Shown here: piece after piece, positions 4,901 to 36,037 of the stretch
Layout: every line of letters begins with the position of its first letter
Position numbering within the stretch: the stretch's first letter is position 1
Assembly: GCA_964507055.1 (NCBI GenBank)
Contig: CAZDOJ010000003.1
Span: 4,819-68,818 of the forward strand
Source of the DNA: an uncultured Gammaproteobacteria bacterium
GTDB taxonomy: Bacteria; Patescibacteriota; Microgenomatia; Levybacterales; UBA12049
Direction of reading: 5' to 3'
DNA: 64,000 bases
Translations under genes and position numbers: made by a program
The notes under the pieces: model-generated
What the model saw: only the letters and a program-made list of their open reading frames with translations
The model's database searches: none
Told to the model about the DNA's origin: nothing

Positions 4901-4963
4901 TGGCAGGATTCTTTTTACTAACTTGGACATCCTGCCTGGTGTCCAACTTTTGCTAGTATATAT

Positions 4964-4994
4964 ATTACTACATATATTAATTAGGCATGTCAAG
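4964..4994 (-). promoter_or_regulatory. Conserved promoter/operator-like element upstream of giant gene A. Read on the minus strand it contains TTGACA (4994..4989) followed by an AT-rich -10 region (ATTAATATATGTAGTAAT).
   Basis: 'attactacatatattaat[2nt]aggc[1nt]tgtcaag' is nearly identical at 4964-4994, 13794-13823 and 36007-36037. Each copy lies about 65-95 bp upstream of a giant-gene ATG and is followed by a conserved 'aatcttatc' box. Confidence 0.45.
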
Positions 4995-5603
4995 CACAAA
5001 TTAATCTTATCATAATTACATCAAAAATAACCATTTAGCCTTAAAAAATGAGCTGTCCAACTTTCTGCGAAACTCTAGTTTTGTAAGAAAATAAGTTAAT
5101 TTTCACAGCTTCAAAACTCTTATTAATTTTCACAAAATTTCTTTACCCCTTTTGATGCTTAATGATATTTTTTGTATTACTTAAAGAATTTTTATATTTT
5201 CTCTTCCTTTTGTACATTTCTCTTGAATAAAAATCTCAGCCTTAGAAAAAAATAGAGAGAGAAATAACTCGTAAGTATAGATAAAATTGCAATATATTTA
5301 TGTGTATCAAAAGGTAAACCTATGCATCAATGATAAATTTACTAACGAGACATGACTCTCACATGCGATTCACACATCTACAAGTATTTATAAAAACTAC
5401 CACTGATAAAAACTAACGACACAAGAACAACCACAAAGAGTCACCAGAAGTTGGAGAAGTCGATCTAAAGACTCTCTGGTGGAAGAGAAAGAGTATCCTT
5501 TACGTCAAAGTCGAAGTTAATCTATATAGTAAAAAAATGAGTATGGAAAATAAACCTAATTGAACATATTGGATAAGTTTGAAGAATTGCTATAGCAAGT
5601 TAG

Positions 5604-8600: not shown

Positions 8601-11600
8601 TGCTGTGGATTGTCCACCACCATTGTACCCACCTATTGAGTAAATATATCCATTCGCTGCGACAACACCATTAAAGGTTCTTCCTGCCGGTAGTGAATTA
8701 GCTGTCGAGAATGAACTTACTCCACCAAGTGTAGTCGCCATTCCTGTGACAGAGAATCGTGCGGATGCAGTTGCTGTCCCTCCGATCAAGAAGTCATTTG
8801 TACTGTTGGATGGAGACACTGCTCCGTTATTTGATTGCCAATAATTTGTTGCCCCAGCATCCGTTCCACAACTCAAAACACCACTGCCGTTTGTGTCAAT
8901 CGTGTCACAGTTCGTGAGCCCAGAAAGCGTCAATCCTGCAAAGGTCGGCGACGCTCCAGAGTGAATATTCTGCGGCAAACTCAATGTCACAGCACCAGTA
9001 CTTCCTGATGCGTTCACTTGATTTGTCGTTCCTGTAATTGAAGTTACTCCAGTGTTATTGATGGTAATTGCACCAGCACCATTTGAAATAGAAATTGCAG
9101 TGCCCTGCGTTAATCCTGCCAATGTATAACCTGAGCCGTTACCAATTAAGAGTTGTCCATTCGTTGCTGTCGAAGCTGTTCCTGTACCACCATTTCCAAT
9201 TGGCAATGTCCCTGTTATCAATGAAGCTCCTCCCGCCAAATTCAATGCAGAACTCGAAAGAACTCCTGATCCATTACTTTGTACAACTCCTGTTGTGAGA
9301 CCGCCAAAGGTGATTGTGCCAGTTGCACCCAAATTAGCTAAGCCAGTAAGATTTTGAGAGTTCCCGGTGATTGCCCCAGTCAAAGTTGCGGCTCCAAATC
9401 TAAGTGTTCCAAGCGATGCAGTAATATCATGATTTCCAGATCCTGAGAAAGTTAAACCAGCACCTACTCCAGAACCAGTAAATCCGGTTGTGCCGGATGC
9501 CGTAATATTGCTTCCTTGAATCGTATTTGCAGTCAAGATAGTGCCGAACCCTGAAGCAATCGATCCACTCGCCAATGCGCCAACTGTTGTGAGTGAAGAT
9601 GTCGTAACCCCCGACCCAAGTGTGTTATTGGTCAAAACATTGGTACTGTTAATCTGAAATGCATTTCCCGTCTGCAGATTAAGATTGCCTGCGACTGTTG
9701 TGTTGTCAGAAAGTGTAATTAAGCCAGATCCTGAATCAATGACAACATTGCCAGTTGTAGAACTTCCGAGCGTTAAGGTCTGGGCATTTGTTGTCCCAAG
9801 AACCCCCGTGCCATCAAGATATGCTGCGTTATTGCCTGAATTCGCGGAGATTGAAGCAGTTGGAGTACCTGAGTTTGTATTAATAAATCGGAATTTAGCT
9901 GAAGTTGTGCTCGTACCTCCGACTAATAAATCGAGTGTATTCGAGAATGGAGAAACCGTGCCATTGTTAGATTGCCATAGATTAGTACCACCCGCACAAG
10001 TACCCCATGTTGGAGTGCCTCCACCATTGGACATCAAACATTGCCCTAGACCACCCACCGAAGTTTGTGCAAGAATTCCTGATCCATTTGTGTACAAAAT
10101 GCCACCATTGCTTGTAAATCCTGACAGCGTTAAACCTGCAAAGGTTGGTGAAGCTCCTGAATGAATATTCTGCGGCAAACTCAATGTCACAGCACCTGTG
10201 CTTCCTGAAATATTAACTTGATTGGTTGTACCAGTAAGTGAAAGCACGCCACTGTTTGAGATCGTCACGGCACCAGTAGCACCACTTACGCCAATCCCTG
10301 ATCCTGCAACTGCGGATGTTACACCAGTGTTGTTAATCGTTATCGTTCCTGCTCCATTGGAAATTGAAATTGCTGTACCATTGGTCAGCCCAGCCAATGT
10401 ATACCCCGTTCCATTGCCAATCAGAAGTTGACCATTTGTTGGAGTGCTTGCTGTTCCTGTTCCACCGTTGCCTACTGCCAATGTTCCCGTGACATCACCT
10501 GTATTCAAACCTACTGCACTTGATGAAAGAACTCCAGAACCATTACTCTTCACAATACCTGTAGTTAAGCCACCCAATGTAATTGTGCCTGCTGCCGAAA
10601 AATTGTTCAAACCTGTAATACTTTGAGAATTTCCAGTAATTGCCCCAGTCAGTGTTGCTGCTCCAAATCTGAGTGTTCCAAGCGATGCAGTAACGTCATG
10701 ATTGCCCGAACCTGAGAAGGTCATCCCAGCACCTGCTCCCGAACCAGTAAATCCCGTCGTTCCTGAAGCTGTAATGTTACTTCCTTGAATCGTATTGGCA
10801 GTCAAGATAGTGCCAAAACCATTTGCGATCGATCCACTCGCCAATGCTCCAACTGAAGTCAATGAAGAAGCGGTCACACCTGATCCCAGCGTGGAAGCAT
10901 TAAGAACGGACGTTCCGTTAATCGAATATCCATTACCCAGTGAAAGATTGACTCCGCCATTCACTGTTGTTGCATCAGACAAAATAATTGAACCAGAACC
11001 TGCATCGATGACGACATTGCCAGTGGATGCACTTCCAACAGTGAGAGTTTGAGCATTGGTTGTGCCAAGCACACCATTGCCTGCCAGATATGCTGCATTG
11101 TTTCCTGAGTTAGCTGAGATACTTGCTGTTGGCGTTCCTCCACTGATGTTCGTAACTGCAAATTTCGCTGAACCCGTAGATGATCCGCCGAGGAGCAAAT
11201 CAAGTGACATATTTCCTGTGTAGATCGCACCGTTGTTGATCTCCCATTGTTCACTCCCCAACTGACATGTACCAAATCCTGTGACGATACCATTGGTCGT
11301 TGTCACACAACTTGCAGAACCTTGTGTGATACCAGAAATGCCATTTGATTGGTAAGCTCCTCCTGTGAGATTTAAATTGCCATTATTCGAAAGTGTCAAT
11401 CGTGTCGTCCCGGATGAGGAAGCACTGAAGATATCACCCGATGCATTTTGCTGATTGATGACTAATTTGCCATTGCCGATCGCGTTGGATCCGACACCAA
11501 GTCCATTGACTCCAGCAAAGAGTGTTGAGGACTGAGCAAACGATCCAGAGCCGTTTGCATACAGAAGTCCTCCATCAGTTACAAAACTTGCAAGTGTCAT

Positions 11601-13724
11601 CCCCGCAAAGGTTGGAGATGCACCAGTATGAATATCCTGTGGCAAACTTAGCGTCACTCCGCCTGTACTTCCTGAGACATTGACTTGATTGGTTGTGCCA
11701 GTCAATGAAGTAACGCCATTATTTGTGAATGTAACAGCACCAGTGGAAGCGTTGATACCGATCCCTGATCCTGCGACTGCAGATGTCACGCCATTGTTGG
11801 TAATCGTTATATCTCCAGTTGCTGCATTGATTTGAATTCCTGATCCAGCAGTCGCAGAAGTAACTCCAGCATTTTGGAGTGAAACCGATCCTCCCAAACT
11901 TACCACTCCTCCACCAGACAAACCTGTCCCTGCTGTCACGGTCACCGATGAATTTGCAAGGTTTGCATTGGTGATTCCTGCGGATCCTGAGAGGTTAGAA
12001 TTGGTCAAACCTGTTATCGTGTTGGATCCTGCAGCAATGGTTTTATTGGTCAAGGTATCATTGCTATTTCTGCCAACCAATGTGTCATTTGCAGATGGAA
12101 AAGTAAATGCAGTCCCGTCAGTTCCAGAAAGCGTGAGAGAACTATTAAGCGTGATTGTCTTTCCAGTAGCAATGTTTAACGTGTTTGAGCCATTTGCAGT
12201 CACCGTCAAACCATTCAATGTCGTAGCAGTTAGAGCTGTAAATGCACCTGTGTTTGGTGTTGATGAACCGATTGCACCTGGTGCAATCCATGTCGCATTT
12301 TGCAAAGACGAAGCATTAATCGTACCACTCCCTGTGAAACCCAAACTCGCACCAGTTCCAACGATCATATTGGCTGTCGTGTTTGTTCCATCGGTAAGAA
12401 AATCAAATGGCAAATACCCAAGTACTGTTCCTGGTGCAACCCATTCTGGTGGCGTCCCAGGTCCTGTGGATTTGAGGATGAAACCATTTGCACCAGCGTT
12501 TGTGGATGTGGCGGTTGTTGCTGAAGTTGCATAAAGAACTCCATTAGTGGTCAATCCAGATAAGACTCCAGCAGCATTACTTGTGATTGTCACAGTCTTA
12601 TTTCCAGAGTCAGGAGACAATGTAATTCCTGCTCCTGCGGAAATGGTGAAAGTGTCAGTATTTGAACCTGCAGAAATATCCGTTGAGCCAACTCGGATTG
12701 TACCGAAAATCTTCTGAGCTGAGCCAGGATCAGTATTGGTGATGGTCAAGCCGGACAAACCAATACCTGAGCCGGATGAAAATGCTACGTCGCCATTTTC
12801 ACCTTGCAGAGAAAGCACACCGGTATTGGCAATTTCCAAACCTTCCAAATCAATTCCATTTCCTGATGTGAAAGCGATTGTACCAGTCAAGCCCTGAACA
12901 GAATTAACTCCGCCAAGGGCTGCGATAACCGGATTCTGAGGATCGCCAGTGATTGAGATATTTGTACCGGCAAGTACTGAATAGACTATGTTTGATGCAA
13001 TTACTCGACCAGTTCCAGCGTCAATGTCTTTGTTATTTGTTTTAATTCCTCCAAACAAATTCGATGCTTCGTTAACCGTCAAACTATTCTTGATCTCAAA
13101 AGCATCGAGAAAGGTCACTTTCTTGGTAAACAGAGCTGGCACGCCGATCTGCAGTTGCATCGCAGAGATCCTATCTTCTGCGGCCAAGACACTTTGTCCA
13201 CCGACTTGCTCTACTTTTTCACCTGGTTTAAGAAACGAGATAAATGCTTGTCTTTTTTCATCAAGCCCTTGTGCATTGGAGAATCCTATAACTATTAATG
13301 TCGTCAGAAGAAGTAATGCTATCACTGCACCGAAGGTCATGACCGCTTGAGGCTTGTGAAGTTTTGGCTCAGGCTTTTGGGAATGATGCAGTGGAGCTGC
13401 TGAAGTTTCTGTATGAACCGGCGTTGATTGAATAGGCATTGGAGTTGGCTGGGAGATTGATGCTTTCTGAGGAACGTGCTGCGGTTGCGATTGGAATCCA
13501 AAAGGCTTTGCAGTAGAAGCAGGCTCTGAAACTTGGACATCAGCCTCATCATCTTTTACAGCAGCTCCAAGTAATTGAGATAATTGGGCTTTACTGTAAC
13601 GACGCTGATTACCGAAAGTCCTATGCGAAGTAAGATAACCCTTTTCCTCCCATCGACGAAGAGTCCTCGTCGAAACGCGGAAAAAAGTTGCAGCTTCTTG
13701 AATTGTTAGATACTCGTTGTTCAT
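5604..13724 (-). CDS. Giant repetitive surface protein, paralog B (2706 aa). N-terminal excisionase-type HTH, linker, TM, repeat ectodomain. Near the C-terminus is a roughly 120-aa domain homologous to the ectodomain of the 37333-38103 protein, then a 265-aa tail.
   Basis: Complete ORF in the track. N-terminus 'MNNEYLTIQEAATFFRVSTRTLRRWEEKGYLTSHRTFGNQRRYS', TM 'AVMTFGAVIALLLLTTLIVIGF'. Long internal repeats ('LTTVGALASGSIANGFGTILTANTIQGSNITASGTTGFTGSG...LPVGNGGTG') occur at least twice. The ATG at 13724 was checked in the sequence. Confidence 0.9.
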   Translation of the reverse strand: MNNEYLTIQEAATFFRVSTRTLRRWEEKGYLTSHRTFGNQRRYSKAQLSQLLGAAVKDDEADVQVSEPASTAKPFGFQSQPQHVPQKASISQPTPMPIQSTPVHTETSAAPLHHSQKPEPKLHKPQAVMTFGAVIALLLLTTLIVIGFSNAQGLDEKRQAFISFLKPGEKVEQVGGQSVLAAEDRISAMQLQIGVPALFTKKVTFLDAFEIKNSLTVNEASNLFGGIKTNNKDIDAGTGRVIASNIVYSVLAGTNISITGDPQNPVIAALGGVNSVQGLTGTIAFTSGNGIDLEGLEIANTGVLSLQGENGDVAFSSGSGIGLSGLTITNTDPGSAQKIFGTIRVGSTDISAGSNTDTFTISAGAGITLSPDSGNKTVTITSNAAGVLSGLTTNGVLYATSATTATSTNAGANGFILKSTGPGTPPEWVAPGTVLGYLPFDFLTDGTNTTANMIVGTGASLGFTGSGTINASSLQNATWIAPGAIGSSTPNTGAFTALTATTLNGLTVTANGSNTLNIATGKTITLNSSLTLSGTDGTAFTFPSANDTLVGRNSNDTLTNKTIAAGSNTITGLTNSNLSGSAGITNANLANSSVTVTAGTGLSGGGVVSLGGSVSLQNAGVTSATAGSGIQINAATGDITITNNGVTSAVAGSGIGINASTGAVTFTNNGVTSLTGTTNQVNVSGSTGGVTLSLPQDIHTGASPTFAGMTLASFVTDGGLLYANGSGSFAQSSTLFAGVNGLGVGSNAIGNGKLVINQQNASGDIFSASSSGTTRLTLSNNGNLNLTGGAYQSNGISGITQGSASCVTTTNGIVTGFGTCQLGSEQWEINNGAIYTGNMSLDLLLGGSSTGSAKFAVTNISGGTPTASISANSGNNAAYLAGNGVLGTTNAQTLTVGSASTGNVVIDAGSGSIILSDATTVNGGVNLSLGNGYSINGTSVLNASTLGSGVTASSLTSVGALASGSIANGFGTILTANTIQGSNITASGTTGFTGSGAGAGMTFSGSGNHDVTASLGTLRFGAATLTGAITGNSQSITGLNNFSAAGTITLGGLTTGIVKSNGSGVLSSSAVGLNTGDVTGTLAVGNGGTGTASTPTNGQLLIGNGTGYTLAGLTNGTAISISNGAGTITINNTGVTSAVAGSGIGVSGATGAVTISNSGVLSLTGTTNQVNISGSTGAVTLSLPQNIHSGASPTFAGLTLSGFTSNGGILYTNGSGILAQTSVGGLGQCLMSNGGGTPTWGTCAGGTNLWQSNNGTVSPFSNTLDLLVGGTSTTSAKFRFINTNSGTPTASISANSGNNAAYLDGTGVLGTTNAQTLTLGSSTTGNVVIDSGSGLITLSDNTTVAGNLNLQTGNAFQINSTNVLTNNTLGSGVTTSSLTTVGALASGSIASGFGTILTANTIQGSNITASGTTGFTGSGVGAGLTFSGSGNHDITASLGTLRFGAATLTGAITGNSQNLTGLANLGATGTITFGGLTTGVVQSNGSGVLSSSALNLAGGASLITGTLPIGNGGTGTASTATNGQLLIGNGSGYTLAGLTQGTAISISNGAGAITINNTGVTSITGTTNQVNASGSTGAVTLSLPQNIHSGASPTFAGLTLSGLTNCDTIDTNGSGVLSCGTDAGATNYWQSNNGAVSPSNSTNDFLIGGTATASARFSVTGMATTLGGVSSFSTANSLPAGRTFNGVVAANGYIYSIGGYNGGGQSTAYYAALNADGSVGDWRTTSSLPTSLSNATAVVYNGYVYVAGGQVSITLQNKVYYARLNTDGTLGSWQTATNLPQAIQSQSSVVANGYLYMLGGSNNVINNNINSIYYAKINSDGSIGAWTTNGTNLPAATRGHTSVVANGYVYMIGGNASGGTTNVYFAKLNGDGSVGSWTSTNGMPAARVGHSSVVANGYVYAMGGDDTSNAQDEVFFAKLNDNGTVGTWATNQYLIPGVRGNISKNGVIENGYMYVVGGSTTTSGTSGIQSTVYYASTARISMNANLDLIGLSGGNIASASGMVGNGAVGGSVFAGNIFSNGSLTVAGNAQMWNGLSVNGEQTINGALSIFGTSGTAPAASISASTAKAAFMVDNNGVGDLFTASKSGATKFVITNSGNVGIGGVTNPGNPLYVAGNTSGDSVLFTDGPGSLNYLAFGTNRTGGGYNDIASIIGGVYDDLILQRGGGRVGIGLTDPNYDFDVRGISSLNYIQNPNIYGANIGGGILFSQYNAGTAENVYLKVYDANAGFVFENNGAATVTLATLTGAASFGLGTNNFTNLPDGSLHVGNGALCVDDGGSNCDDASRLAGRIYAESSTVTAIDLAENYPSKDNTLEPGDLVIADPNNTEYVKRSENSYQGSILGIVSTKPGILLGGFGDEERRFGNDKKYPIALAGRIPTKVSTENGPIKPGDYLTSSSIPGVAMKATQAGTTIAKAVESYNNPDPRAVGKVVALVNPSWYDPRATLSSDGNISVDGKPFNPQLAQNQNTNISDDSFNARTATSSALTTVKSKTNVLQDMLAALTTRVSTLEDSASSSAFMTSAPGGFTASSAAELDLEKLDVNKVTVTDTLAVVGRTTLADVGITGKVNVGLLSIEGLDNEGSAAINTSVGALRLQSNGLNGIDILNGKITIDNKGNMKSEGEITAKKVNIDTEEVASASLGEVVLKEGQTKVIVKTSALSDKSKIFVQAEEIPVTTAVKKTAADTFEIRVRSAESTDVRLSWWIVN

Positions 13725-13793
13725 TGGGCAGTAATGAAATTGAGCTCAAATACTAGACTTTGTCACCTTTTGTCCAATATTTTCACATAATAT

Positions 13794-13823
13794 AATTACT
13801 ACATATATTAATAAGGCTGTCAA
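13794..13823 (-). promoter_or_regulatory. Conserved promoter/operator-like element upstream of giant gene B (same motif as 4964-4994 and 36007-36037)
   Basis: The sequence is 'attactacatatattaataaggctgtcaagg'. The reverse complement gives TTGACA plus an AT-rich -10 region oriented toward the ATG at 13724. Confidence 0.45.
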
Positions 13824-14123
13824 GGATGAGAATAATCTTATCGTATACTTATCATACTTTATCGATTGTGCTCGACAATTTCGTGAAAAGTTTCGGGGAA
13901 TTATTGATGAGAGAATCCAGTAAATTCTAATAATCTTATACGTGCGATTTTGGAGAATTTCATTAGTTGCAAAAACGTGTTTTTAGAAATTGAGTCAGTT
14001 TAAAAAAAGTCTTATAATAATCATTATCCGTCAGGGACAGAGATATATCCTTCCCTTTTTACGAAAAAATTAAAGATATCAATAGTTATATTAATGCATC
14101 AAAGTGGTGGTCTATTCTTTGTT

Positions 14124-14657
14124 CTATTGAGGAATTAATTTGTTAAGAGCATCTTGTTCTGCGGCTGCTGATGCAATCTCGATATCTGGTTCTGTAGAAG
14201 CTGATGTTGTCCCCGCAACTGCTGAGGATTCAAATGGAATTGATGTAGGCTCTAGATAATTGAGTTTGGACTTACTGATAATTTTTTTTAATGATGGTCT
14301 ATATAAATAGACTTCTTTACTCTTTTTGTAAAGGAGAATCTTATCTCCGTTCTCTGCCTTTTTAAAGAAAGGTTGTGTATCGAGTGATTGCTTATCTGAA
14401 ACTGTTGCCACAGTTGGGACTTCATCTTTTGGAAGTGCCAATTGTTTCTTTGCATTGCCCATCATCTCATTCCAATCTTCTTCGTATGTCTTTGCCTCTC
14501 TCTGAAACACTGCTTCAGGGCTATGAAAGTACTGCCAATAACGGAAACCACCATAACTGCCCACGAGAACTCCTGCAACAATTCCAACAGCAATGAGTGT
14601 CGATGCAACTGGATGATTCTTATGAAATGTTTTAATTTTTTGCATGGCACTTAGCAT
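14124..14657 (-). CDS. Hypothetical membrane-anchored protein (N-terminal TM helix, Lys-rich extracytoplasmic part)
   Basis: ORF of 177 aa with one hydrophobic helix ('VASTLIAVGIVAGVLVGSYGG') near the N-terminus. It sits 103 bp downstream of the M23 gene, on the same strand, inside the giant-gene cluster. Confidence 0.5.
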   Translation of the reverse strand: MLSAMQKIKTFHKNHPVASTLIAVGIVAGVLVGSYGGFRYWQYFHSPEAVFQREAKTYEEDWNEMMGNAKKQLALPKDEVPTVATVSDKQSLDTQPFFKKAENGDKILLYKKSKEVYLYRPSLKKIISKSKLNYLEPTSIPFESSAVAGTTSASTEPDIEIASAAAEQDALNKLIPQ

Positions 14658-14760
14658 AAAATAAAGCGAGTAAAATGTAAAGAAATCTCAATACTCATCT
14701 TTGCATAAAACCCTTTGCCATTTCGCATTTGATGACCTTTGGCGACATGTGTAAAAATGC

Positions 14761-17700
14761 TTAGAAAACAAATGGTTGTTCAGCAGCACGTCCATCAAAG
14801 AATTTCCCATGTCGCATTAATTCCTCATTTGTTGGAGCATAGATTTTCGTTTCTTCTGATCCCACGGATGAGAAAGTTCCTGGTGCTACTTGATTATTAT
14901 ATTCAGTCTCAATCCATGCAGCGGAACGCACGGTATTGGACATACGGACCTCATCAATCCTTCCGTCAAAGCACCACGCAAAATTAGAAGAACAAACTGC
15001 ATTGATATCTGCTTGCCCAATGGATGAAGCCTGTGTAGTGTAGTCTCGAGGGTTTCCGGTATAGGTGACACTATTTCTGAATATTCCATCAACGTAGAGA
15101 CTATTTACCTTAGTTGCTGTATTAACTGTCTGTACCACATATCTAAAGGCTCCTATTGCAAATGGTGTTGTACTTGCTCCAAAAGCTGTACCTCCGGTAT
15201 TATAGACCGTAGAGAACCATGTACTACTACTCGCGAAACGGATACCTGTATGCTGGCCCCTTTTCCCCACAACAAAGTAATCGTTATTTCCTGTAGCATT
15301 TGGGTTTGTATCAGGACTAGCCCATGCACTATAAGTGAAATTTGATTCAGTTATATCTTGCAGACTTGCTGAATTTGGGATAGTGACTTTATCATTTCCA
15401 GCTGTTCCCCCATCAAAGTTTTGTGAGTTACCTACCTGACCTGTATTTGTACTGAGGGTAAATCCACTGGCGGTTCCATTATTTGCATTAGACGTGGAGT
15501 CATTGACTGTCGTCCCTGAGGTTTCTGCCATATGATACACGGCTTTATAGTTGCTATCCCAAACGCTTGTTGCACTTTGCTGACTGGCGGCTGATGGATT
15601 GCCATAATACATATAGATCGTCGTGTCATTAACCGAAGACAAGCTTGGAATCTTAACCCACGCCACGAGCGTACCGGATGCATACGATTCGATTTGATGC
15701 GAGAGTTTGGTTCTGCCATCATTCGAGGTAAAGAGGATGTCATTACCATTTGCTAGTGCTTTCGTTGAAAGATCACTGTCACTCGTCCGTGTTATAACTA
15801 CAGGAAAATCAGTAAGGGCTGAGTCTGCAGACGTGTAAGCCATAATTACACCTGCCTCCAATAAGGATATAGTCGCGGTATTCGTACAGGATTGCATACC
15901 AATCGTAGCCGCATTGGACGGGTACGTCGAGCTCGTGGTAATTGGTGAGACATAAGTCTCTTCAAAATTACCTAGGGTGATTGTCGTATCTGTACCATTA
16001 AATGTAATTCTGGATCCGGTACATGAAGTTGCGTTCCTCCTTCCATAAATCCATCCCTGACTTGCAATAAGTCTTTGAGACGAAATATCAACATCGCCTG
16101 TAGCAGCATTTTCAATACCAAAATTCTCTCTTTGATTGGCCACGTTTCGACTCCAGCCGTTTGTCCCACTAACAGGACGCTCATTAATCTGAGGAGCATG
16201 TCCACTTCCATAGCCACTGCCCCCTGATCCAACTTGTGTTGTGAACTGGTTTGCTGCACCGTTTGCATTTGGACGCTTAGCTGTGACATGAACTTCTCCA
16301 GGATCGGAAAGATCGCTGCCATTGTCTATATAGATATCATCCATATGCTGTACCTTGTTTGCTCCATTCGCGTCAGCGATAAGCCCCATACGAATATAAT
16401 TAGAACCAGTAGCACTAAGGAATACATTGGAACTTGTGTATTCAAGATTTCCATTGAGATAAACTCTGAATTGATTCACAGATGTTGATGTAATAGTGTA
16501 TGCCATAGAAATTCGATACCAGACACCAGCCTGCAAAGCTGTACTGCCCTGATTACCGCTACCATCCTCCAATATATGCCCTGGTCCCATCGTCAGAGGA
16601 CTACCAATAAATGTAGAGTCATCACTCTGATAAAGTTCGATAATACCTTGTTCTCCACTATTGGTGAAGTTATCAAATTTCATATAGAAACTAATTCTTG
16701 TACCCGTATCACTCGCAACACCACCCTGGTGGAACATAGAATATGTCGCACCTGCACCGGTATTGAGTCGTAATGAACACGGGCCAGTCACGGAGGTAGT
16801 GCAATCAGAAGTTACGGTTGAGTCAGGATTTTCATAGAATTCTACGTTCTGAGTACTATCCGTTCCAGGTTCCATAAAGGTAACAGTTGGAGATGAAGTA
16901 ACCACTTCTGTATGGTCAATGGTAATCGGCTTACGATATATCCACGAATAGTCGTACCAATCTGTACCCACAGCATCGGCTGCAAGTTGCCACTTTCTTG
17001 TGTCGTCGTAGATCATCGTTTTGGAAGAGTCAAAGAGTTTTGCAGAACCTAATAAGTAAAACTGTGGACTTACTTGTGGAGCTCGATATGCATAACTCAA
17101 TGTTGTCTTCTCCCCTTTCTTCAATGAGACTTGCCATTTAATAACTTTCACCTTTTCAGTCACACTACTCTCAGAATCTGCAACTTCCGTTTGGATTTCC
17201 TGACTAAGGACGGTAAATGGCTGTGCTTTCACCGAATTCGTAGCAGCAGACGATGTTGCTACCGATGGCTGAGGCGTTTCAAGCGTAGGCTCAGGTTCTG
17301 TTGAAGGAACGGCTGATGAAGTGGCTGGATTTGCTTCGGATCCTCCAGGTGTATCATGCTGATGTTCTTCCGCAGCTGATGTCGTCGCAGAGAGAACTCC
17401 AGTTGAATTAATAGCATTCTCAAGTGCGGGCGGCATGATGCCATTACCTGCAAGGTTAAGATATGGCAGCGGATCAATCTTTCCTGCATAACCATTTTCC
17501 ATATCGGGATTCTCGGGTTTCATACCAAAATGCAAATGGGGTCCTGTCGATTCACCTGTATTACCTGAGTAGCCGATAAGCATACCTTTGGTGACATGCG
17601 TTTCTGTTGGGACATCTGTCTTACTCAGATGGCCGTAGTAACTCTTTCCCCACGCGTGTTGAATAATGATCGTAATACCATAATCCCCTGGCCCAGAAAA

Positions 17701-19002
17701 AACCACATTGCCTTCATCCACTGCATATAACGGAGTACCCATTGGCAGAGCAAAGTCTATCCCATCATGACCAGAAAGACCGTATTTGGAATAGAAATTT
17801 CGCAGTTCTCCATCGGTTAAGTAGCCACCAAAACCTTGTGAGATTGAGTAGCTTCCATCAAAAGGCATTTGGAGAGAAGCGGTACTTGCACCAAGCACTT
17901 TCGTTTCAGGATCTTGTCCATCTAAGTACACTGTCTTTACACCATCATACGAAGATTTTTCATCCGTTGGTGTAATGACAAAACTCTCAGGTACAGTTTC
18001 AGTAACAGTTCCTTCGAAATCCTGATTTGCTGTGACCTCAATATTCATCGGATACGTAAGCGGCGGATACAAACGTGTAGCACTAGTTCTTTTGATTTCA
18101 AATGGCGTTTGTGTTTTTACTTCAAATGAATCTGTGATTGAAAATTCTCCATTCAAACTTATCGCATGCAGTTCCATCGTATATGTTCCTTCGTCTGCAA
18201 CAGTATATTGTGCTTCGTAATCAGGTTTTAGAGTAAAGTTCTTTGATGAACATTCTTTATTCACTTTAATTTTGTTATTTGCAGTTGAGAGAATATCTGT
18301 AGTATTTGCTTTCACATTGGTGATCTTGAGAGAGACGCTTGCATCACAGACCATCTCTCCTTTTTCATCAAGAACTGCCATTGAAATTGCAGCTGTTTCT
18401 TTTGGCTTATATGTGGCTTTGTCAGTATTGATGGCAAGTACACCCCACGTGAAGTCTTGCTTAGAAATATTTCCTTTGGCATCTGTTACTTCAAGCGTAA
18501 ATTGGCCAGGAACGAATTGATTGGTCCCCGCCAGAAGTACTTCTGTTTGATTACCATGCTCAACAGTACGGGTTTCAACTGGAATTACCTCACCTTCCGA
18601 ATCAATAACTTTGGTCGTAAACGCATCTTTGTCGGGATTATTTACAGTCATGCTGACAACTTCATCTGCCTTAAAGTCATCTTTGGGAAGCTCTTGTACC
18701 GAAACCGGAATTGGTCTTTTGGCTGAAGTATTTGAAGCAGAATCATCTGCAAGAGTCAGCTTATTGATATCTTCAGCAACACCTACCATATTACGTTTGA
18801 TCACATCCGTATGTGGATCTGTAAGTGTTGGCTGCTCGACACGTACATCCTTAGCCCAAACCTGTGCAGGATAAGCAAGATGGCCCAAGCCGAGCGTAAG
18901 AATATTGATAATTGCGACAGTTCTTTTAAGATGAGTGAAATGCAATTTTCTGAAATGAGAAAAGGCAGTATGCATATATTTTGGGCCGTTTTTACTCGGC
19001 AA
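14761..19002 (-). CDS. Large secreted M23 (LytM-type) metallopeptidase with C-terminal LamG/concanavalin-A-like lectin modules (about 1400 aa). The start is uncertain: TTG at 19002 or ATG at 18975.
   Basis: Signal-peptide-like 'MHTAFSHFRKLHFTHLKRTVAIINILTLGLGHLAYPAQVWA'. M23 motifs 'SGHDGIDFALPMGTPLYA...GYSGNTGESTGPHLHFGM'. LamG-like signature near the C-terminus '...CFDGRIDEVRMSNTVRSAAWIETEY'. The track start codon is TTG (revcomp of 19000-19002 'caa'). Confidence 0.8.
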   Translation of the reverse strand: MPSKNGPKYMHTAFSHFRKLHFTHLKRTVAIINILTLGLGHLAYPAQVWAKDVRVEQPTLTDPHTDVIKRNMVGVAEDINKLTLADDSASNTSAKRPIPVSVQELPKDDFKADEVVSMTVNNPDKDAFTTKVIDSEGEVIPVETRTVEHGNQTEVLLAGTNQFVPGQFTLEVTDAKGNISKQDFTWGVLAINTDKATYKPKETAAISMAVLDEKGEMVCDASVSLKITNVKANTTDILSTANNKIKVNKECSSKNFTLKPDYEAQYTVADEGTYTMELHAISLNGEFSITDSFEVKTQTPFEIKRTSATRLYPPLTYPMNIEVTANQDFEGTVTETVPESFVITPTDEKSSYDGVKTVYLDGQDPETKVLGASTASLQMPFDGSYSISQGFGGYLTDGELRNFYSKYGLSGHDGIDFALPMGTPLYAVDEGNVVFSGPGDYGITIIIQHAWGKSYYGHLSKTDVPTETHVTKGMLIGYSGNTGESTGPHLHFGMKPENPDMENGYAGKIDPLPYLNLAGNGIMPPALENAINSTGVLSATTSAAEEHQHDTPGGSEANPATSSAVPSTEPEPTLETPQPSVATSSAATNSVKAQPFTVLSQEIQTEVADSESSVTEKVKVIKWQVSLKKGEKTTLSYAYRAPQVSPQFYLLGSAKLFDSSKTMIYDDTRKWQLAADAVGTDWYDYSWIYRKPITIDHTEVVTSSPTVTFMEPGTDSTQNVEFYENPDSTVTSDCTTSVTGPCSLRLNTGAGATYSMFHQGGVASDTGTRISFYMKFDNFTNSGEQGIIELYQSDDSTFIGSPLTMGPGHILEDGSGNQGSTALQAGVWYRISMAYTITSTSVNQFRVYLNGNLEYTSSNVFLSATGSNYIRMGLIADANGANKVQHMDDIYIDNGSDLSDPGEVHVTAKRPNANGAANQFTTQVGSGGSGYGSGHAPQINERPVSGTNGWSRNVANQRENFGIENAATGDVDISSQRLIASQGWIYGRRNATSCTGSRITFNGTDTTITLGNFEETYVSPITTSSTYPSNAATIGMQSCTNTATISLLEAGVIMAYTSADSALTDFPVVITRTSDSDLSTKALANGNDILFTSNDGRTKLSHQIESYASGTLVAWVKIPSLSSVNDTTIYMYYGNPSAASQQSATSVWDSNYKAVYHMAETSGTTVNDSTSNANNGTASGFTLSTNTGQVGNSQNFDGGTAGNDKVTIPNSASLQDITESNFTYSAWASPDTNPNATGNNDYFVVGKRGQHTGIRFASSSTWFSTVYNTGGTAFGASTTPFAIGAFRYVVQTVNTATKVNSLYVDGIFRNSVTYTGNPRDYTTQASSIGQADINAVCSSNFAWCFDGRIDEVRMSNTVRSAAWIETEYNNQVAPGTFSSVGSEETKIYAPTNEELMRHGKFFDGRAAEQPFVF

Positions 19003-19069
19003 CCCTCCTTATATTCATAGTAAATCAATTCCTGTACAGTTGCAAATTAGACGCTATACTCCCCTGGTA

Positions 19070-22000
19070 TTACTTATTGGATCTGTAATTGAGGACGATA
19101 TCTCCAACCTGAGTGTAGTTATTATCTTTGGAATATAGCTTCAAGTAGATGATAGCAGTCTCACCAGCGGCATCCAAATCTCGTGTATTACCGGCATCCA
19201 GTTCCGAGTCATCGATGCTTATGACGTTCCATTGTCGTTGGCTTGCAGACGTCTGATTGACTCTCATTGCTACTGGCGTCGAGGCTTGTGCAGCACTCAA
19301 ACTAATATCCGAATTATAGACTCTCACATCAAGCTTATTTCCAGTATTTGTAGTTAATTCTGTATTGTAATAAATCTGAAGGGCATTACTTGTTTCCCAT
19401 GCAGCAAAATCATCAGGTAATGTAACTCTTACTGCCACTGTGTAATCTTGTATTGCTGTCTGGCTTGAATTCCATTCATAGTAACTCATAAAGTTGGACA
19501 AATTCTGACTTGCTGAACTGGAAGCATCTGACGTCATAAATCCGTTGGTTGTACCTGAGTTAGAAGCAGTGAGTATAGCTCCTGGGTATTCAGCACTAAG
19601 CGTAACCTTTCTTACTGGTCTTGCTGTGCCGTAATACGTTGGTCCCGCTGCAGGATCAAATTGAATACCATTTGTGGTACTACCGATTGTAACAATTCCA
19701 TCCACTTCAAGTTCATCCTGGATATACAGATCATTATCACCATCAGCAGTATTGTTGTTGACCACAGAATCACCAATGACGTTGAATGCTGATCCTCCAC
19801 CATAGCCACCGACATTGAGTGTGTCGTTATCAGCAATGATGATATCTGAGCCAGCTGCATTGAGGGTGATATCACCTGATGAAGAGGTAAAGGTATTTCC
19901 AGTTACATTTCCTGTTAGATTACCTGTTACATTACCAAATATCGTGCCTAATGTTTGGAGATCCCCTTCTATAAAGAGATCATCATCTGATCCCATATTA
20001 CCGTTCGCTCCAGTAATCGTATCGCCAATAATGTTATATGCAACGTCCGAAGCATTTCCTCCAATGTTCAACGTCGTAGCATCATTAAAGATCACATCGC
20101 CACCATTTGGTGCAAGTGTGAGGTCCCCTGTTGTTGTATCTAAAGTATTGTTATCAAGTCGAAGATTATCCACTGTTAACTGTCCAAGTCCAGTAATACT
20201 TTGAGTATTTCCAGTTATAGTTCCGGTCAATGTTAATGCACCCAATCGAAGCACACCCACTGAGGCTGTAATGTCATGATTACCTGTACCTGAGAATGTT
20301 AAGCCGGCACCATTACCGGTAGATGCATATCCAGTGGTACCTGCTGCTGTAATATTACCTCCAGCAATATTATCTGATCCTACATCAATTGCCCCAAATC
20401 CAGTATTGATTGAACCTGAATTCAAGACACCCACTGTTGTGAGTGAAGATGTCACAACACTCGAACCAAGTGTCGAAGCACTCAAGATACTTGCTCCATT
20501 GATCTGGAATTCTTTACCTGAAGAAAGATTTAAGTTACCTGTTGAAGTAACAGTGCCTGAACCTGCTTGAGGTGATAAGGTAATATTTCCTGTGGTATTT
20601 CCACCAATGGTCAATGTATTATTTCGAAGTGATTGGATAACTGCGTCTCCACCAAGTGAAAGTCCGTTTCCTGTAGCTGTTGCTGAAACAGATGCTGTTG
20701 GCGTCCCTGAATTCATATTAAGTACTGCAAATTTTGCTGAACTTGAAGCTGTGCCTCCGATAAGGATATCCGCGGTACTGTTTACTGGAGAGAATGCTCC
20801 ATTAGCCAAGTTCCAGTAATTCGCTCCGCCACAAGAACCCCACGTTGGAGCCGCTGCACCATTCGATTTGAAACAATCACCGTTTGTGCCTGCTGACGTG
20901 AAGGCAAATGCTGTACCGGTACCGTACGCTACACCACCATTAGTCGGAGTTGCTGTTGAATTTGTACCACCGTTTGCAATTGGTAATGTACCTGTAATTT
21001 GCGTCGTCAAATCAACTGCTCCCCATGATGGCGTTGTTCCTGAGTGAAGGAGTTGGTTACCTGTACCTGCAGCCAATCGAGTCCAATCAGTTCCGTTGTA
21101 ATACATTAAATCTCCGGTCGCATCTGAACCTAACGCAATATCTGTACCATCAACAGAGTTGTCCGCAATTGTTGTTCCAAATGATCCTGTACCTGTTCCA
21201 GTTACATCACCTGTGAGTGTAATTGTCTGGTCCCCAGTGTTTGTACCCGAAGTTGAACCAGAGAAGTTCGATCCAGCCAAAGTTCCATTACATGCAAAGT
21301 TACCGTTAGAGTTGGTAACTGTACAGCCAGTCCCACCAAATCCGCCACCAAGAAGGACATTGCCTGTTCCTGTGCCATTCAATCGGAGTTCACCTGTTCC
21401 CTTTGCATCGATAGCAAATGGAATGTTAGAATCGCCACCTGTTGCTGCGAGTGTGACTGCACCAGCTGCGGCGGCATTGGTCAAGGTTAACTCATTAATA
21501 GCTGAAGCTGTTGTACCGAAGATGAGCTGTTCATTACCATTTGCATCAGCGATAAATCCACCATTTACAAATCGTGGAGCAGTAAGTGTCTTACCACTTA
21601 AGGTTTCAGTTCCTGCCAAAGTTGCCAATGTACCTGTTGTAGGCAAAGTCACATTCGTCGTACCTGTTGTTGTAAGCGTCAACGCATTTGCACCTGAGGT
21701 AGTAAAGTCACCAGCCAACGCAAGAGCACCAGTTGTCCATGTTGGAGCACCTGTGCCACCTGAAAGTAATGCTTGTCCAGATGTACCTTGAGCTGAAGCT
21801 GCAACTGGACTTGTTCCGTTTCCGTATAAGATACCACCTTGGGTCAATGTCGTTGCACCGGTACCACCGTTGCCTACTGGAAGTGTTCCGGTAACATCAG
21901 CTGTCGCCAAACCAATTGCTGAACTGGAAAGAACACCGGATGCGTTGGTCTTTACAACGCCAGCTGTGAATCCATTCAAGACAATGTTGCCAGTTGTATT

Positions 22001-25000
22001 GTTCCCCAAGGTCAAAGACTGTCGAGCGGTTGTACCGAGAACGCCTGTCGCAGTGAGTGATGCTCCACCAGCTGATCCTGCTGAGACTGATGCCGTTGGT
22101 GTACCTGAATTAACATTCAAGATTGCAAACTTTGCGGATGATGATGATGTGCCTCCAATGAGAAGATCGACAGTACTGTTTACTGGAGCCAATGTGCCTT
22201 GGTTAAGATTCCAGAAGTTTTGTACTCCACCACTTTCATCAGTTCCACAAGAGAGTACTCCATTTGCATCAGTATCAATCGTGTTACAGTTTGCCAAACC
22301 GGTAATTCGTGCTCCACCAACTACATGTAAATTAGTAGTAGGATCAAGCGTTCCGATACCCAAATTGCCACCATTTTCGAATACAAATTGTTGCGTACCT
22401 GATCCTCCAGTTCGGATAGCCAAACCACCTCCAAAACCTTCAATACGAGCATCGAAATCTTCAGCTGTTGAGGTCTTAAAGTCAATAAAGGCATCATCCG
22501 ATGTACGAGCAAGTTCAATACTTCCGGTATCTGTTAATAATGACTGTTGCGTACCGTTCAGTGCTTCAATATTTCCAGCAACTGTAAGGCGGTTAGTTGG
22601 AGTTGCTGTGCCGATACCTACAAAGTTATTGCCATCACTGTTCAACACGATATTGCCTGTTGTATTACCACCAAGGCTCAATGTTTGATTGACAGTGGTC
22701 TGTAATGCACCTGCTGCAGTTAAGTATGCCGCTCCAGCTGATCCAGCTGATACTGATGCTGTTGGGGTTCCTGAGTTGACGTTAAGGACTGCGAACTTTG
22801 CTGAATTACTTGCTTGTCCTCCGATCAAGAGATCAAGAGTATTGTTCACTGGTGAGAGTGATCCGTTTGCCAAGTTCCAGTAATTTGTTCCAAGAGCTGC
22901 CGCATTGGACCATGTCGGATTTTGTCCTGCTCCATTGGTAGTCAAAACATATCCTGCAGTTCCAGGAGCCAAAGCACTCATTACACCCGTAGCTGAGAAG
23001 TATGGAACTGCACCTTGATTAGCCGCTGAAAGATTTGCTCCAGTACCACCATTTGCGGAGCCAAGAACACCCGTAATATCAGCTGTAAGAGAAACTGCTC
23101 CCCATGATGGAGTCGTTCCTGAATGCAAAAGCTGTGTACTTGTACCAGCAGCCAATCGTACCCAATCAGTGCCGTTGTAGTACATCAAATCTCCTGTCGC
23201 ATCTGATCCAAGTGCAATGTCAGTTCCATCGACTGAGTTATCTGCAATTACTGTTGCGAATGATCCTGTACCTGATCCAGTAACATCACCTGTAAGGGTA
23301 ATTGTCTGGTCACCGGTATTGGTACCTGAAGTTGTTCCAGAGATGTTTGAACCAGTAACTGCACCATTACATGCAAATGCCCCAGTAGAGTTGGTAACTG
23401 TACAGCCAGTGCCACCGAAACCACCACCAAGGAGAACATTTCCTGTACCAGTGCCGTTCAATCGAAGCTCTCCAGTGCCTTTAGCATCGATAGCAAATGG
23501 AATATTAGAATCACCACCGGTTGCTGCAAGTGTGACCGTGCCGCCAGCAGCTGCATTGGTTAAAGTTAACTCATTAATAGCTGAAGCTGTTGTACCGAAG
23601 ATCAATTGCTCGTTACCATTTGCATCAGCGATGAAACCACCATTTACAAATCGTGGAGCTGTAAGTGTCTTGCCACTCAAGGTTTCAGTTCCAGCCAAGG
23701 TTGCAAGTGTTCCAGTTGTTGGCAAGGTGACGTTGGTTGCACCTGTTGTGGTTAAGGTCAATGCATTCGCCCCTGAGGTTGAGAAATTACCAGCCAACGC
23801 AAGTGTCCCCGTTGTCCAAGTTGGAGCACCTGTACCACCAGAGAGCAAAGCTTGCCCAGCTGTACCTTGAGCTGAAGCCGCAACTGGACTTGTTCCATTT
23901 CCATAGAGTACGCCACCTTGAGTCAATGTAGTTGCACCAGTACCACCGTTACCAACTGGGAGTGTTCCTGTCACATCAGCCGTTGCCAAACCAATTGCTG
24001 AGCTCGAGAGTACACCTGATGCATTTGTCTTTACAACACCAGCGGTAAATCCATTCAAGACAATATTTCCTGTGGTACTGTTCCCCAAAGTCAATGATTG
24101 ACGTGCTGTTGTACCAAGTACACCATCTGCAGTAAGTGACGCTCCACCAGCTGATCCTGCGGAGACTGATGCCGTTGGTGTACCTGAATTAACATTCAAG
24201 ATTGCAAACTTCGCTGAGGCTGAAGATTGACCACCCACGAGCAAATCAACAGTTGAATTCATAGCAGAGAGTGCTCCATTATTTTGATTCCAGTAATTAG
24301 CCAAAGATCCAGTACATGAACCCCAAGTTGGTGCTCCACCTGCATTGGATTGGAGACATTGGCCGGATGTTCCTTGTGCTGTTTGGGCTACGACTCCTGA
24401 TCCGTTGGTGTAAAGCAAACCGCCATCAGTTGTGAAGCTTCCAAAAGTAACTGTGCCTGTTGTGCCGAGATTCGCAACGCCAGTTATATTCTGGCTATTT
24501 CCGGTGATTGCACCTGTTAATGTGGTTGCACCCAATCGGAGTACCCCTGAAGATGCTGAGATGTCATGATTTCCTGTACCTGAGAATGCTAGACCAGCTC
24601 CGTTACCTGAAGCAGTAAATCCGGTTGTTCCAGTGGAAGTGATATTGCCTCCAGAGATTGCATCTGTACCTGTATCTATTGAACCAAAGCCCGAGGTAAT
24701 TGAACCTGCGTTCAATGCTCCGACGGTTGTAAGTGATGAGGTAACGACACTTGATCCAAGTGTTGTTGCATTCAAAACTGATGCTCCATTAATCTGGAAT
24801 TCTTTGCCACTTGCCAAGTTCAAACTTCCAGTCAAGTTGACAATTCCTGCACCAGCCAAAGGTGAGAGTGTAATGTTGCCAGTCGTATTGCCACCAATGG
24901 TAAGTGTTTGATTCGCTGTTGTCTGCAATGTACCTGCTGCAGTCAAGTATGCTGCACCTGCTGATCCTGCTGATACTGATGCCGTTGGTGTTCCAGTATT

Positions 25001-35941: not shown

Positions 35942-35968
35942 TGGGCAGCACCGGTAAGTTTTAAGCAC

Positions 35969-35983: not shown

Positions 35984-36006
35984 CTTAACTTTTCACCAGT
36001 ATATTA

Positions 36007-36037
36007 ATTACTACATATATTAATATAGCTTGTCAAG
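36007..36037 (-). promoter_or_regulatory. Conserved promoter/operator-like element upstream of giant gene C (third copy of the motif)
   Basis: The sequence is 'aattactacatatattaatatagcttgtcaagg', followed by 'tattatcttatcttaatcttatc'. It has the same orientation and a similar distance to the ATG as at the other two giant genes. Confidence 0.45.

Follow-up and report, generated by a model that had tools for sequence, protein, structure and literature searches.

A large secreted M23 peptidase as a probable operon partner of a giant surface protein in a Levybacterales genome

We analysed a stretch of 64,000 nucleotides (nt) from a member of the Levybacterales (Patescibacteriota; contig CAZDOJ010000003.1 of assembly GCA_964507055.1), the whole of which is called the window below. 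It carries a cluster of five genes, all on the minus strand: giant gene C, a gene for an M23 peptidase of 1404 amino acids (aa), a gene for a 177-aa membrane protein, giant gene B and giant gene A. It is likely that the peptidase is a Sec-exported, catalytically competent zinc endopeptidase of the lysostaphin/zoocin type, and that it is the operon partner of a giant, membrane-anchored surface protein. An earlier description of the same DNA, made from the letters and open reading frames (ORFs) of the window (the sequence-only reading), had proposed a secreted M23 enzyme with two lectin modules, probably co-transcribed with giant gene C and the membrane protein.

The gene cluster and the giant proteins

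An uninterrupted ORF occupies 14761..19002 on the minus strand, amounting to 1413 codons if counted from a TTG at 19002. The copy in the public assembly (P0001), which is 100% identical, has 1404 aa and begins at an ATG at 18975 (context ATGCATACTGCC); because this ATG is conserved as the first in-frame start in a 68%-identical orthologue, we adopted it as the start of the M23 gene. Residue numbers given here follow the ATG, and adding 9 converts them to the TTG numbering of the sequence-only reading. Between the stop codon of giant gene C (19070-19072) and the M23 gene lie 67 nt if the TTG is taken as the start and 94 nt if the ATG is, and from the M23 stop codon it is 103 nt to the 177-aa gene and 115 nt to the second ATG of that gene; the gaps of 67 and 103 nt reported earlier were thus both reproduced, the former as counted to the TTG.

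14761..18975, minus strand: M23 peptidase gene, 1404 aa from the conserved ATG; the ORF reaches TTG 19002.
19070..35968, minus strand: giant gene C, likely start ATG 35941.
19073..19717, minus strand: C-terminal domain (CTD), the last ~215 aa of giant C and the conserved upstream partner of the M23 gene.
14124..14657, minus strand: 177-aa protein (173 aa from the second ATG, 14645), with an N-terminal transmembrane (TM) segment and a conserved extracytoplasmic domain of ~60 aa.
35800..35941 (giant C), 13580..13724 (giant B) and ~4750..4900 (giant A), minus strand: giant N-termini with helix-turn-helix (HTH) heads, recognised from sequence.

The only good Shine-Dalgarno sequence, AAGGAGG (19004..19010), lies 28 nt 5' of the conserved ATG and 1 nt from the in-frame TTG. 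A small hairpin of 4 bp, GCCG-N8-CGGC, is found between the Shine-Dalgarno and the ATG (18976..19010, minus strand). In the 68%-identical relative (L002) a hairpin at the equivalent position pairs instead with the Shine-Dalgarno, and conservation of the hairpin is not convincing. The arrangement may reflect translational control, or mere uncertainty about the start codon.

The giant genes comprise 5632 codons (C), 2706 codons (B) and at least 1630 codons (A, which runs off the start of the window). All three begin with an HTH of the MerR/HTH_17 type, about 45 aa long, followed by a low-complexity linker, and a single TM segment follows the linker in giant B (aa 128-146) and giant C (aa 162-180). 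Giant C is laid out as MerR/HTH_17 head, linker, this one TM segment, ~5400 extracellular residues and the CTD. To judge from the sequence, the head would be a DNA-binding domain tethered at the cytoplasmic face of a giant surface protein, and it may feed back on the promoter that the giant genes share. Since giants B and C carry a cytoplasmic HTH head, a linker and one N-terminal TM segment, the CTD would form the far end of a membrane-anchored protein. HTH heads also occur on giants in six related loci (L002, L006, L008, L097, L102 and L106).

The CTD opens with a strongly conserved segment, GTARPxKKITLSPEYxGAxLTASGSA..MTSDAS. No Pfam family reaches its threshold on this domain (the best, DUF6801, scores 21 bits against 26), and the searches returned no sequence match in the Protein Data Bank (PDB), no similarity to LamG profiles and no PHROG. 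ORFs that bear the CTD range from ~150 aa to >3200 aa, and several of them are HTH-headed; in some loci the CTD closes ORFs of merely ~150-350 aa (for example L088, CTD at 9320..9916), so that it can stand nearly alone. The C-terminal region of giant B is likewise conserved but is of another kind (window 5604..7000, minus strand). This second type of end region also terminates the ORF 5' of the M23 gene in L008 (8460..9737), and it closes a giant of 3191 aa in L090 (387..9962), which is followed by a gene of the 177-aa type. In a further related locus, a giant with a Peptidase_S74 (tail-fibre chaperone) domain occupies the same position.

The ~60-aa extracytoplasmic domain of the 177-aa protein is recognisable by the pattern LPxDExPTVATVxDK..QPFF..AENGDK...LYRPS, and some relatives of the protein carry an additional LytR_C domain. 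The ATG at 14645 is a possible leaderless start, as suggested by the sequence in front of it.

Domains of the M23 protein

The protein can be divided into an N-terminal half (signal peptide, stalk, catalytic domain, linker and beta-sandwich), which was modelled well by AlphaFold2 (AF2), and a C-terminal half made up of lectin-like modules and a short tail.

18853..18975, minus strand: predicted signal peptide, aa 1-41, with charged and hydrophobic stretches and VWA|KD (AF2: helix 5-33, disordered 34-83).
17926..18708, minus strand: tandem macroglobulin (MG)-like beta domains, aa ~90-350, AF2 pLDDT >90, with the invariant pair C210/C242.
17512..17772, minus strand: Peptidase_M23 catalytic domain, aa 402-488, with H403, D407, H449, H480 and H482.
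17206..17448, minus strand: disordered Ser/Thr/Pro-rich linker, aa ~510-590, from sequence and AF2.
16975..17163, minus strand: conserved beta-sandwich, aa ~605-667, present in all family members and without a Pfam match.
16327..16716, minus strand: divergent LamG/concanavalin A (ConA)-like jelly roll, aa ~754-883, from hhalign, with fold matches from a low-confidence model.
15781..16278, minus strand: second beta domain of a repeatable module, aa ~900-1065, from comparison of copy number among relatives.
15502..15750, minus strand: DUF2341 domain (Pfam).
14911..15399, minus strand: Laminin_G_3 (ConA-like lectin/glucanase) domain containing CFDGRIDEVRMSNT (Pfam).
14764..14853, minus strand: C-terminal tail ...APTxxxLMRHGxFF..G..QPFxF-COOH, family-specific, near-invariant and predicted to be disordered.

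At the N-terminus a positively charged stretch is followed by a hydrophobic stretch of 17 residues and then by VWA|KD, and the signal peptides of relatives are equivalent (ending in YAQ, FAQ or LAQ); inspection of the sequence revealed no lipobox cysteine at the N-terminus and no further TM segment across the protein. The secretion proposed by the sequence-only reading is accordingly upheld as a prediction. The M23 core (HxxxD...HxH) that it had noticed is backed by a Pfam match well above threshold (Peptidase_M23, PF01551; E 1.6e-24, 86.4 bits against a cut-off of 28.7), and the catalytic set is complete: H403 and D407 (HxxxD), H449, and H480 and H482 (HxH) are invariant in homologue alignments of 55 and of 70 sequences. 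With these five zinc-binding and catalytic residues invariant, the domain is of the active type and not a degenerate activator of the LytM type.

The AF2 model of residues 1-700, built from 70 sequences, reached a pLDDT of 78 and a pTM of 0.71, with values >90 within domains, and displays an N-terminal helix, a disordered stretch, beta domains (90-350), the M23 domain (370-500), a linker (510-590) and a beta-sandwich (605-667). Searched against the PDB with Foldseek, the catalytic domain resembles lysostaphin, StM23 and the LytM domain of DipM (TM-scores 0.79-0.80, rmsd 3.1-3.5 A). The best PDB match by sequence is the catalytic domain of zoocin A (PDB 5kvp; E 6e-28, 101 bits, ~42% identity), with Csd1, ShyA, lysostaphin and LytM well behind at 42-67 bits. 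None of the NCBIfam equivalogs for housekeeping M23 enzymes (MepM, ShyA, ShyC, DipM, ActS, EnvC) reaches its cut-off, the best being MepM at 62 against 341. The N-terminal beta domains resemble the MG domains of C3, alpha2-macroglobulin and TEP1 in Foldseek; Pfam MG2 (PF01835) stays below threshold on the protein (20 against 32.8 bits), so the likeness is at the level of the fold only.

Thirty-one metagenome ORFs (388-4254 aa, some cut by a contig end; L124-L170) have the MG-like N-terminal module and no M23 domain, among them L147 (5728..18489), L133 and L161, and none of them stands behind a gene that ends in the CTD. Since these ORFs share the module without the enzyme, the MG-like stalk would appear to be reused on other large surface proteins.

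Two LamG domains had been claimed for the C-terminal half. One of them is found by Pfam (Laminin_G_3, 68.4 bits against 27.6, aa 1202-1364 in TTG numbering) and contains the segment that had been quoted for it; the second is detectable at the profile-profile level only. No Pfam match to it was obtained even when segments were scanned separately, and a BLASTP self-comparison of the two C-terminal halves found no similarity, which is why a profile comparison was required: residues ~754-883 align with the Laminin_G_3 region in hhalign with 95.7% probability (E 8.8e-9). Pfam also recognises DUF2341 (PF10102) in this half (48.6 bits against 23.4). The best fold matches to the low-confidence C-terminal model are all ConA-like: the lectin domain of trans-sialidase, the receptor-binding domains of clostridial toxins, laminin G and Cip1.

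The lectin region is modular and turns over quickly, and in some relatives it is encoded separately. A two-part module (aa ~700-1075, ~380 aa) is absent from the 68%-identical relative and is present in one to three copies in others. In L013 (4009..5406) and L089 (14809..15678), the lectin-plus-tail module is a gene of its own, directly 3' of a tail-less M23 gene, and this split marks a natural division of the protein. The tail itself does not recur elsewhere in the window, and it was found on no other kind of protein (apart from the split-off C-terminal module) in 1.3 Mb of related loci or among 1.84 billion representatives. We had considered the tail as a general sorting signal and rejected this idea, as it is confined to M23-family proteins or to their split-off C-terminal modules.

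Linkage in relatives and the operon

The family is large (386 scored matches, the top 120 all >430 bits). The source names of its members include Amesbacteria and Levybacteria, and some members are labelled "M23 family metallopeptidase"; the genome matches include Gottesmanbacteria and Microgenomates OLB23 (among the matches listed, which are mostly generic M23 proteins). The catalytic and stalk core is 45-60% identical across the family. The closest relative, on a chromosome of 1.61 Mb (OZ246394.1), has a giant with a MerR HTH head, the M23 gene, a gene for a 175-aa protein and a giant with MerR HTH and Kelch domains, in the same order as in the window.

Among 14 independent genome or assembly loci, 11 have an ORF ending in the CTD immediately upstream of the M23 gene (L002, L004, L006, L009-L014, L088 and L089), with CTD identities of 40-72%. 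Scanning metagenomes with a family-specific N-terminal alignment yielded 79 further loci, which were scored with hidden Markov models built from our own alignments; the evaluable set consisted of 44 ORFs that had both MG and M23 domains and enough upstream sequence. A CTD-ending ORF was directly upstream in 34 of these 44, and four more were the second copies of a tandem M23 pair standing behind such an ORF. By comparison, the CTD was upstream of none of the 24 evaluable MG-domain relatives that have no M23 domain (Fisher p ~2e-10). The sequence-only reading had named co-occurrence with the giant genes in related genomes as a check of its proposal, and the linkage to giant-type genes proves to be conserved far outside the circle of near relatives; the comparison adds that the constant partner of the M23 gene is the CTD, and not giant size as such.

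Measured from the CTD stop codon to the first Met codon of the M23 ORF, the gap does not exceed 50 nt in 23 of the 34 metagenome loci, and 10 of these have gaps of -1 to +2 nt (these lengths are approximate, as the start codons are uncurated); in loci checked by hand it is a TAATG overlap (L013), 1 nt (L010), 5 nt (L008), 9 nt (L014), 19 nt (L012) and 33 nt (L004). Because the gaps are mostly short or overlapping, it seems likely that the two genes form an old and often translationally coupled operon, in which the gap of 94-134 nt in the lineage of the window would be a derived state. The nearly contiguous or overlapping CTD and M23 genes are the strongest evidence for co-transcription that sequence comparison has to offer. 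Several loci have tandem copies of the M23 gene.

The complete order (CTD-ending giant, M23 gene, 177-aa homologue, HTH-headed giant) is found in L002, L098, L100, L113 and L153, and an HTH-headed giant follows in L098, L100, L113, L122 and L153. Of 22 CTD-type loci, 9 encode a homologue of the 177-aa protein no more than 400 nt downstream of the M23 gene, and the number rises to 13 when the limit is set at 8 kb. Such homologues also stand directly behind giants that have no M23 gene nearby (L090, and the P0151 locus, where the giant carries Peptidase_S74), and it is for this reason that we assign the 177-aa protein to giant genes generally, as an accessory, and have rejected, as a primary reading, an M23-specific immunity protein or inhibitor.

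Mobile and addiction elements seem to gather around the M23 locus: a toxin-antitoxin-like cassette (YafQ_toxin) lies between the giant gene and a tandem M23 pair in L006 (5236..6106), a MazE/PIN pair lies just downstream of the module in L089, and in L007 a Tn3/resolvase is found upstream of an M23 gene that has no CTD partner.

The following transcription signals were located in the window:

36005..36037 (giant C), 13793..13825 (giant B) and ~4962..4995 (giant A), minus strand: giant-gene promoter motif of ~33 nt, near-identical copies, from a motif scan.
18976..19069, minus strand: C-to-M23 intergenic region, with no giant-gene motif and no terminator, with the Shine-Dalgarno and a weak promoter-like element.
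14653..14681, minus strand: promoter-like TTTACA-17-TATGCT in the gap between the M23 and 177-aa genes, 7 nt before ATG 14645.

The motif TTGACA-N7/8-(T/A)ATTAATATATGTAGTAAT occurs exactly three times in the window, upstream of giants A, B and C, where no copy is expected by chance, and it is absent from the gap between giant C and the M23 gene and from that between the M23 and 177-aa genes. No terminator-like site was found on the minus strand in either gap, and both gaps fold no better than shuffled sequence (z -0.17 to -1.7). The promoter motif of the sequence-only reading is therefore real and is missing where that reading said it was missing. Its operon of giant C, M23 and membrane-protein genes agrees with the common strand, the short gaps, the want of a terminator and the conserved order: sequence and synteny together suggest that the three genes are co-transcribed. 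Downstream of the promoter motif, giants B and C share a conserved leader ending in CTGCCCAATGAAC, and the giant B copy of the motif is identical in the 68%-identical L002 despite the divergence of the surrounding intergenic DNA.

A regulatory variant has to be weighed here, in which the M23 and 177-aa genes of the window lineage mainly use internal promoters of their own, uncoupled from giant C; it is compatible with the operon partnership proposed above and does not exclude it, and we think it rather unlikely. In its favour, the gap has widened (94 nt here and 134 nt in a close relative, against at most 50 nt in most loci), and the window shares with L002/L003 two promoter-like elements, a weak sigma-70-like TTGCAA-17-TACTAT in the C-to-M23 gap (19017..19045) and TTTACA-17-TATGCT, the latter at a distance of 7 nt from ATG 14645 that fits a leaderless transcript. 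However, the first element matches the consensus at just 8 of 12 positions and falls below the threshold of the scanner, promoter-like matches in the region are no commoner than in shuffled sequence (18 against 15.8 +/- 4.5), and no terminator separates the genes. The window and L002/L003 are, moreover, so closely related that conservation between them says little; for this reason and because of the frequency in shuffles, we treat the elements only as a caveat.

Function, related systems and the remainder of the window

Taken together, these observations allow a mechanism to be proposed. Transcription from the promoter upstream of giant C would, on the comparative evidence, read through the terminator-free gap into the M23 gene, and a weak internal promoter might add to it. 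The giant protein, as its sequence predicts, would stay anchored by its N-terminal TM segment with the CTD outermost; the peptidase would be secreted and would lose its signal peptide after about A41. The MG-like domains, whose folds are seen in the model, would then form a rigid stalk carrying the catalytic domain, and the variable ConA/LamG-DUF2341 modules would bind glycans of a wall or surface and so choose the cutting site. The enzyme would cut peptide cross-links of peptidoglycan outside the cell and open the wall locally where the giant fibre acts. The 177-aa membrane protein, encoded next in the operon, would serve as a general accessory of the giant genes.

Whose wall would be cut is a separate and more tentative matter. 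With less than even confidence, we favour the wall of a second cell with which the fibre makes contact, because of the affinity to zoocin A, the failure of the housekeeping models, the fast turnover of the lectin modules and the repeated tandem duplication. A serious rival, though somewhat more doubtful, is that the peptidase would make a local opening in the producer's own peptidoglycan through which the giant protein, or a structure built by it, can cross the wall or be inserted into it, much as specialised lytic enzymes open the cell's own wall for flagella and secretion systems. The tight and often translational coupling of the M23 gene to the upstream gene fits such a role, as do the well-conserved catalytic and stalk core and the fusion of relatives of the neighbouring 177-aa protein to LytR_C, a cell-envelope domain. 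Yet the catalytic domain is nearest to a bacteriolytic exoenzyme and not to housekeeping M23 enzymes, lectin modules that vary in number and type, together with tandem duplication, would be unexpected if the substrate were one invariant self wall, and giants B and A, which the window also encodes, are not accompanied by M23 genes.

Two other roles are less likely than the cutting of either a foreign or the producer's own wall. LasA-type M23 enzymes cleave proteins, and the peptidase might likewise bring about the maturation or release of the giant or another surface protein, cutting it for instance at Gly/Ala-rich sites close to where the CTD begins; the M23 gene pairs strictly with the CTD and not with giant bodies generally, and the opening segment of the CTD is strongly conserved. 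We nevertheless hold this to be improbable, as sequence and fold are closest to peptidoglycan endopeptidases and the ConA-like lectin modules point to a glycan-bearing target. Least credible of all is a housekeeping enzyme for growth, division or shape (of the kind of MepM, ShyA or DipM) that stands beside the giants by chance and has its own transcript. M23 domains are common among housekeeping enzymes, promoter-like elements do occur in the gaps, and the best NCBIfam names are MepM, Pgp3 and ShyA, all of them far below threshold; but it is hard to reconcile such an enzyme with equivalog scores so far under their cut-offs, with adjacency to the CTD in ~78-86% of family loci (against 0/24 in relatives without M23), or with a protein of 1404 aa bearing a stalk and lectin modules, and a related genome (L004) has a separate small LysM-M23 gene.

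Several findings weigh against the partnership of a secreted endopeptidase with a giant fibre, or against its use on a foreign wall. The Shine-Dalgarno sits 28 nt from the conserved ATG of the M23 gene; the CTD partner is missing in 6 of 44 metagenome loci and in 3 of 14 other loci; both promoter-like elements are kept in L002/L003; and the AF2 model of the C-terminal half, built from 11 sequences, is poor (pLDDT 57). Translational coupling is no less compatible with a part in assembly at the producer's own wall than with attack. Contact between the peptidase and the giant has lost an argument as well: among true M23 members the association between tail and CTD vanishes (19/8 against 4/0, p 0.55).

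This last point concerns an extended interpretation in which the module is a contact apparatus of Microgenomates: the peptidase would be made together with the fibre, held at its far end by the CTD, carried by this fibre of thousands of residues to the surface of a host cell and would breach the host's wall where the two touch, and the HTH head might report to the shared promoter. Here the CTD would hold the enzyme, possibly by way of the RHGxFF...QPFxF tail or of the conserved beta-sandwich. A first count of the co-occurrence of tail and CTD had seemed to favour docking (p 5e-4) and was discarded as an artefact, its "no CTD" class having consisted mostly of MG-only proteins without M23. We lowered the probability of docking once the co-occurrence had gone after correction, and consider the contact apparatus, as a whole, quite unlikely.

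Among known enzymes, zoocin A of Streptococcus equi subsp. zooepidemicus offers the closest comparison. The two share an extension of the catalytic domain, P(E/A)NP..NG..G(K/R)IDP, and both are secreted and combine a catalytic domain with a separate targeting part (for which binding is predicted in the window protein). Zoocin A is, however, a small two-domain exoenzyme with its own target-recognition domain, whereas the window protein, at 1404 aa, combines an MG-like stalk with a beta-sandwich, with DUF2341/LamG modules and with a conserved tail, and its gene would share an operon with that of a giant surface protein. Zoocin A is also accompanied by an immunity gene of the FemABX type, which defines the zoocin A-type system; no FemABX-like domain was found among the neighbouring or other window ORFs scanned. 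The staphylococcal glycyl-glycine endopeptidases lysostaphin, LytM and StM23 have the same fold and the same zinc-binding and catalytic residues as the window enzyme, but are targeted by SH3b domains in place of ConA-like modules and have neither an MG-like stalk nor a giant-gene partner.

MepM, ShyA, Csd3 and NMB0315 are, like the window protein, multi-domain M23 proteins, and enzymes of this type come top in Foldseek for the N-terminal half because they too combine beta domains with M23; their global superposition is poor (TM-scores 0.15-0.3), their sequence scores are 42-67 bits and their equivalog cut-offs are missed. The virion-associated M23 lysins of phages (tape-measure and tail proteins, endolysins) provide an example of an M23 domain that belongs to a very large structural or fibre protein and cuts a foreign wall from the outside. 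PHROG families of virion lysins and Gp16 (PDB 9m7n) match the M23 domain of the window, and only that domain; unlike these lysins, the window enzyme is a separate secreted protein and not a part of the fibre, and the window, with its ATP synthase operon and tRNA synthetases, belongs to a cellular genome.

Giant genes of Omnitrophota, which are ultra-small, host-dependent bacteria, have been implicated in cell-wall degradation, with peptidase and hydrolase functions, and have been proposed to act on the envelopes of other cells (10.1101/2023.11.21.568195). Those giants carry their hydrolytic domains inside the giant protein, whereas in the window the peptidase has its own gene, coupled to the 3' end of the giant gene, and the Omnitrophota are a different phylum from the lineage of the window. 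The terms "helix-turn-helix" and "M23" do not occur in the text of that paper, and the combination of HTH and TM anchor is not described in it. The enzyme family itself is well known, and relatives of the protein are already annotated as M23 metallopeptidases. In the full texts searched, we found no description of the architecture of MG-like stalk, M23 domain, beta-sandwich, repeatable ConA-like modules and tail, nor of a module consisting of a CTD-ending surface protein, a peptidase and a small membrane protein.

Bacteria of the candidate phyla radiation (Patescibacteria) are thought to live attached to other cells; to our knowledge, the molecules of contact are known only for a few cultured Saccharibacteria, with almost nothing for Microgenomates. 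The M23 enzyme described here is not a stray gene: it is the fixed partner of one end-domain of giant proteins, in many lineages and at 40-55% identity. What emerges is a concrete module that can be tested, comprising a giant (HTH head, TM anchor, long body and CTD), a secreted M23 enzyme and a small membrane protein, of which the M23 domain, the CTD and the lectin modules are soluble pieces that could be expressed without culturing the organism and would help to tell which wall is cut and what the fibre attaches to. Should other bacteria be the target, the lectin modules would give a read-out of host range; if the producer's own wall is the target, the module would show how a minimal cell threads a protein of 5000 residues through its envelope.

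The remainder of the window includes an F-type ATP synthase operon, dockerin/CBM proteins, ComEC/ComEA and tRNA synthetases; scans for tRNAs and Rfam families across the window gave no matches. Taken with the source names of the peptidase family, this gene content suggests a Microgenomates-like bacterium of the candidate phyla radiation. Two secreted-looking Dockerin_1 proteins are encoded at 46085..49609 (minus strand), one of them with CBM_4_9 and a sub-threshold MG2, and would represent additional surface or carbohydrate-binding equipment. At 55196..57095 (minus strand), ~36 kb from the M23 gene, lie DNA-uptake genes for ComEC (Competence domain) and a ComEA-like protein (SLBB and HHH), which are unlinked to the M23 module, yet relevant to a lifestyle of harvesting material from other cells.

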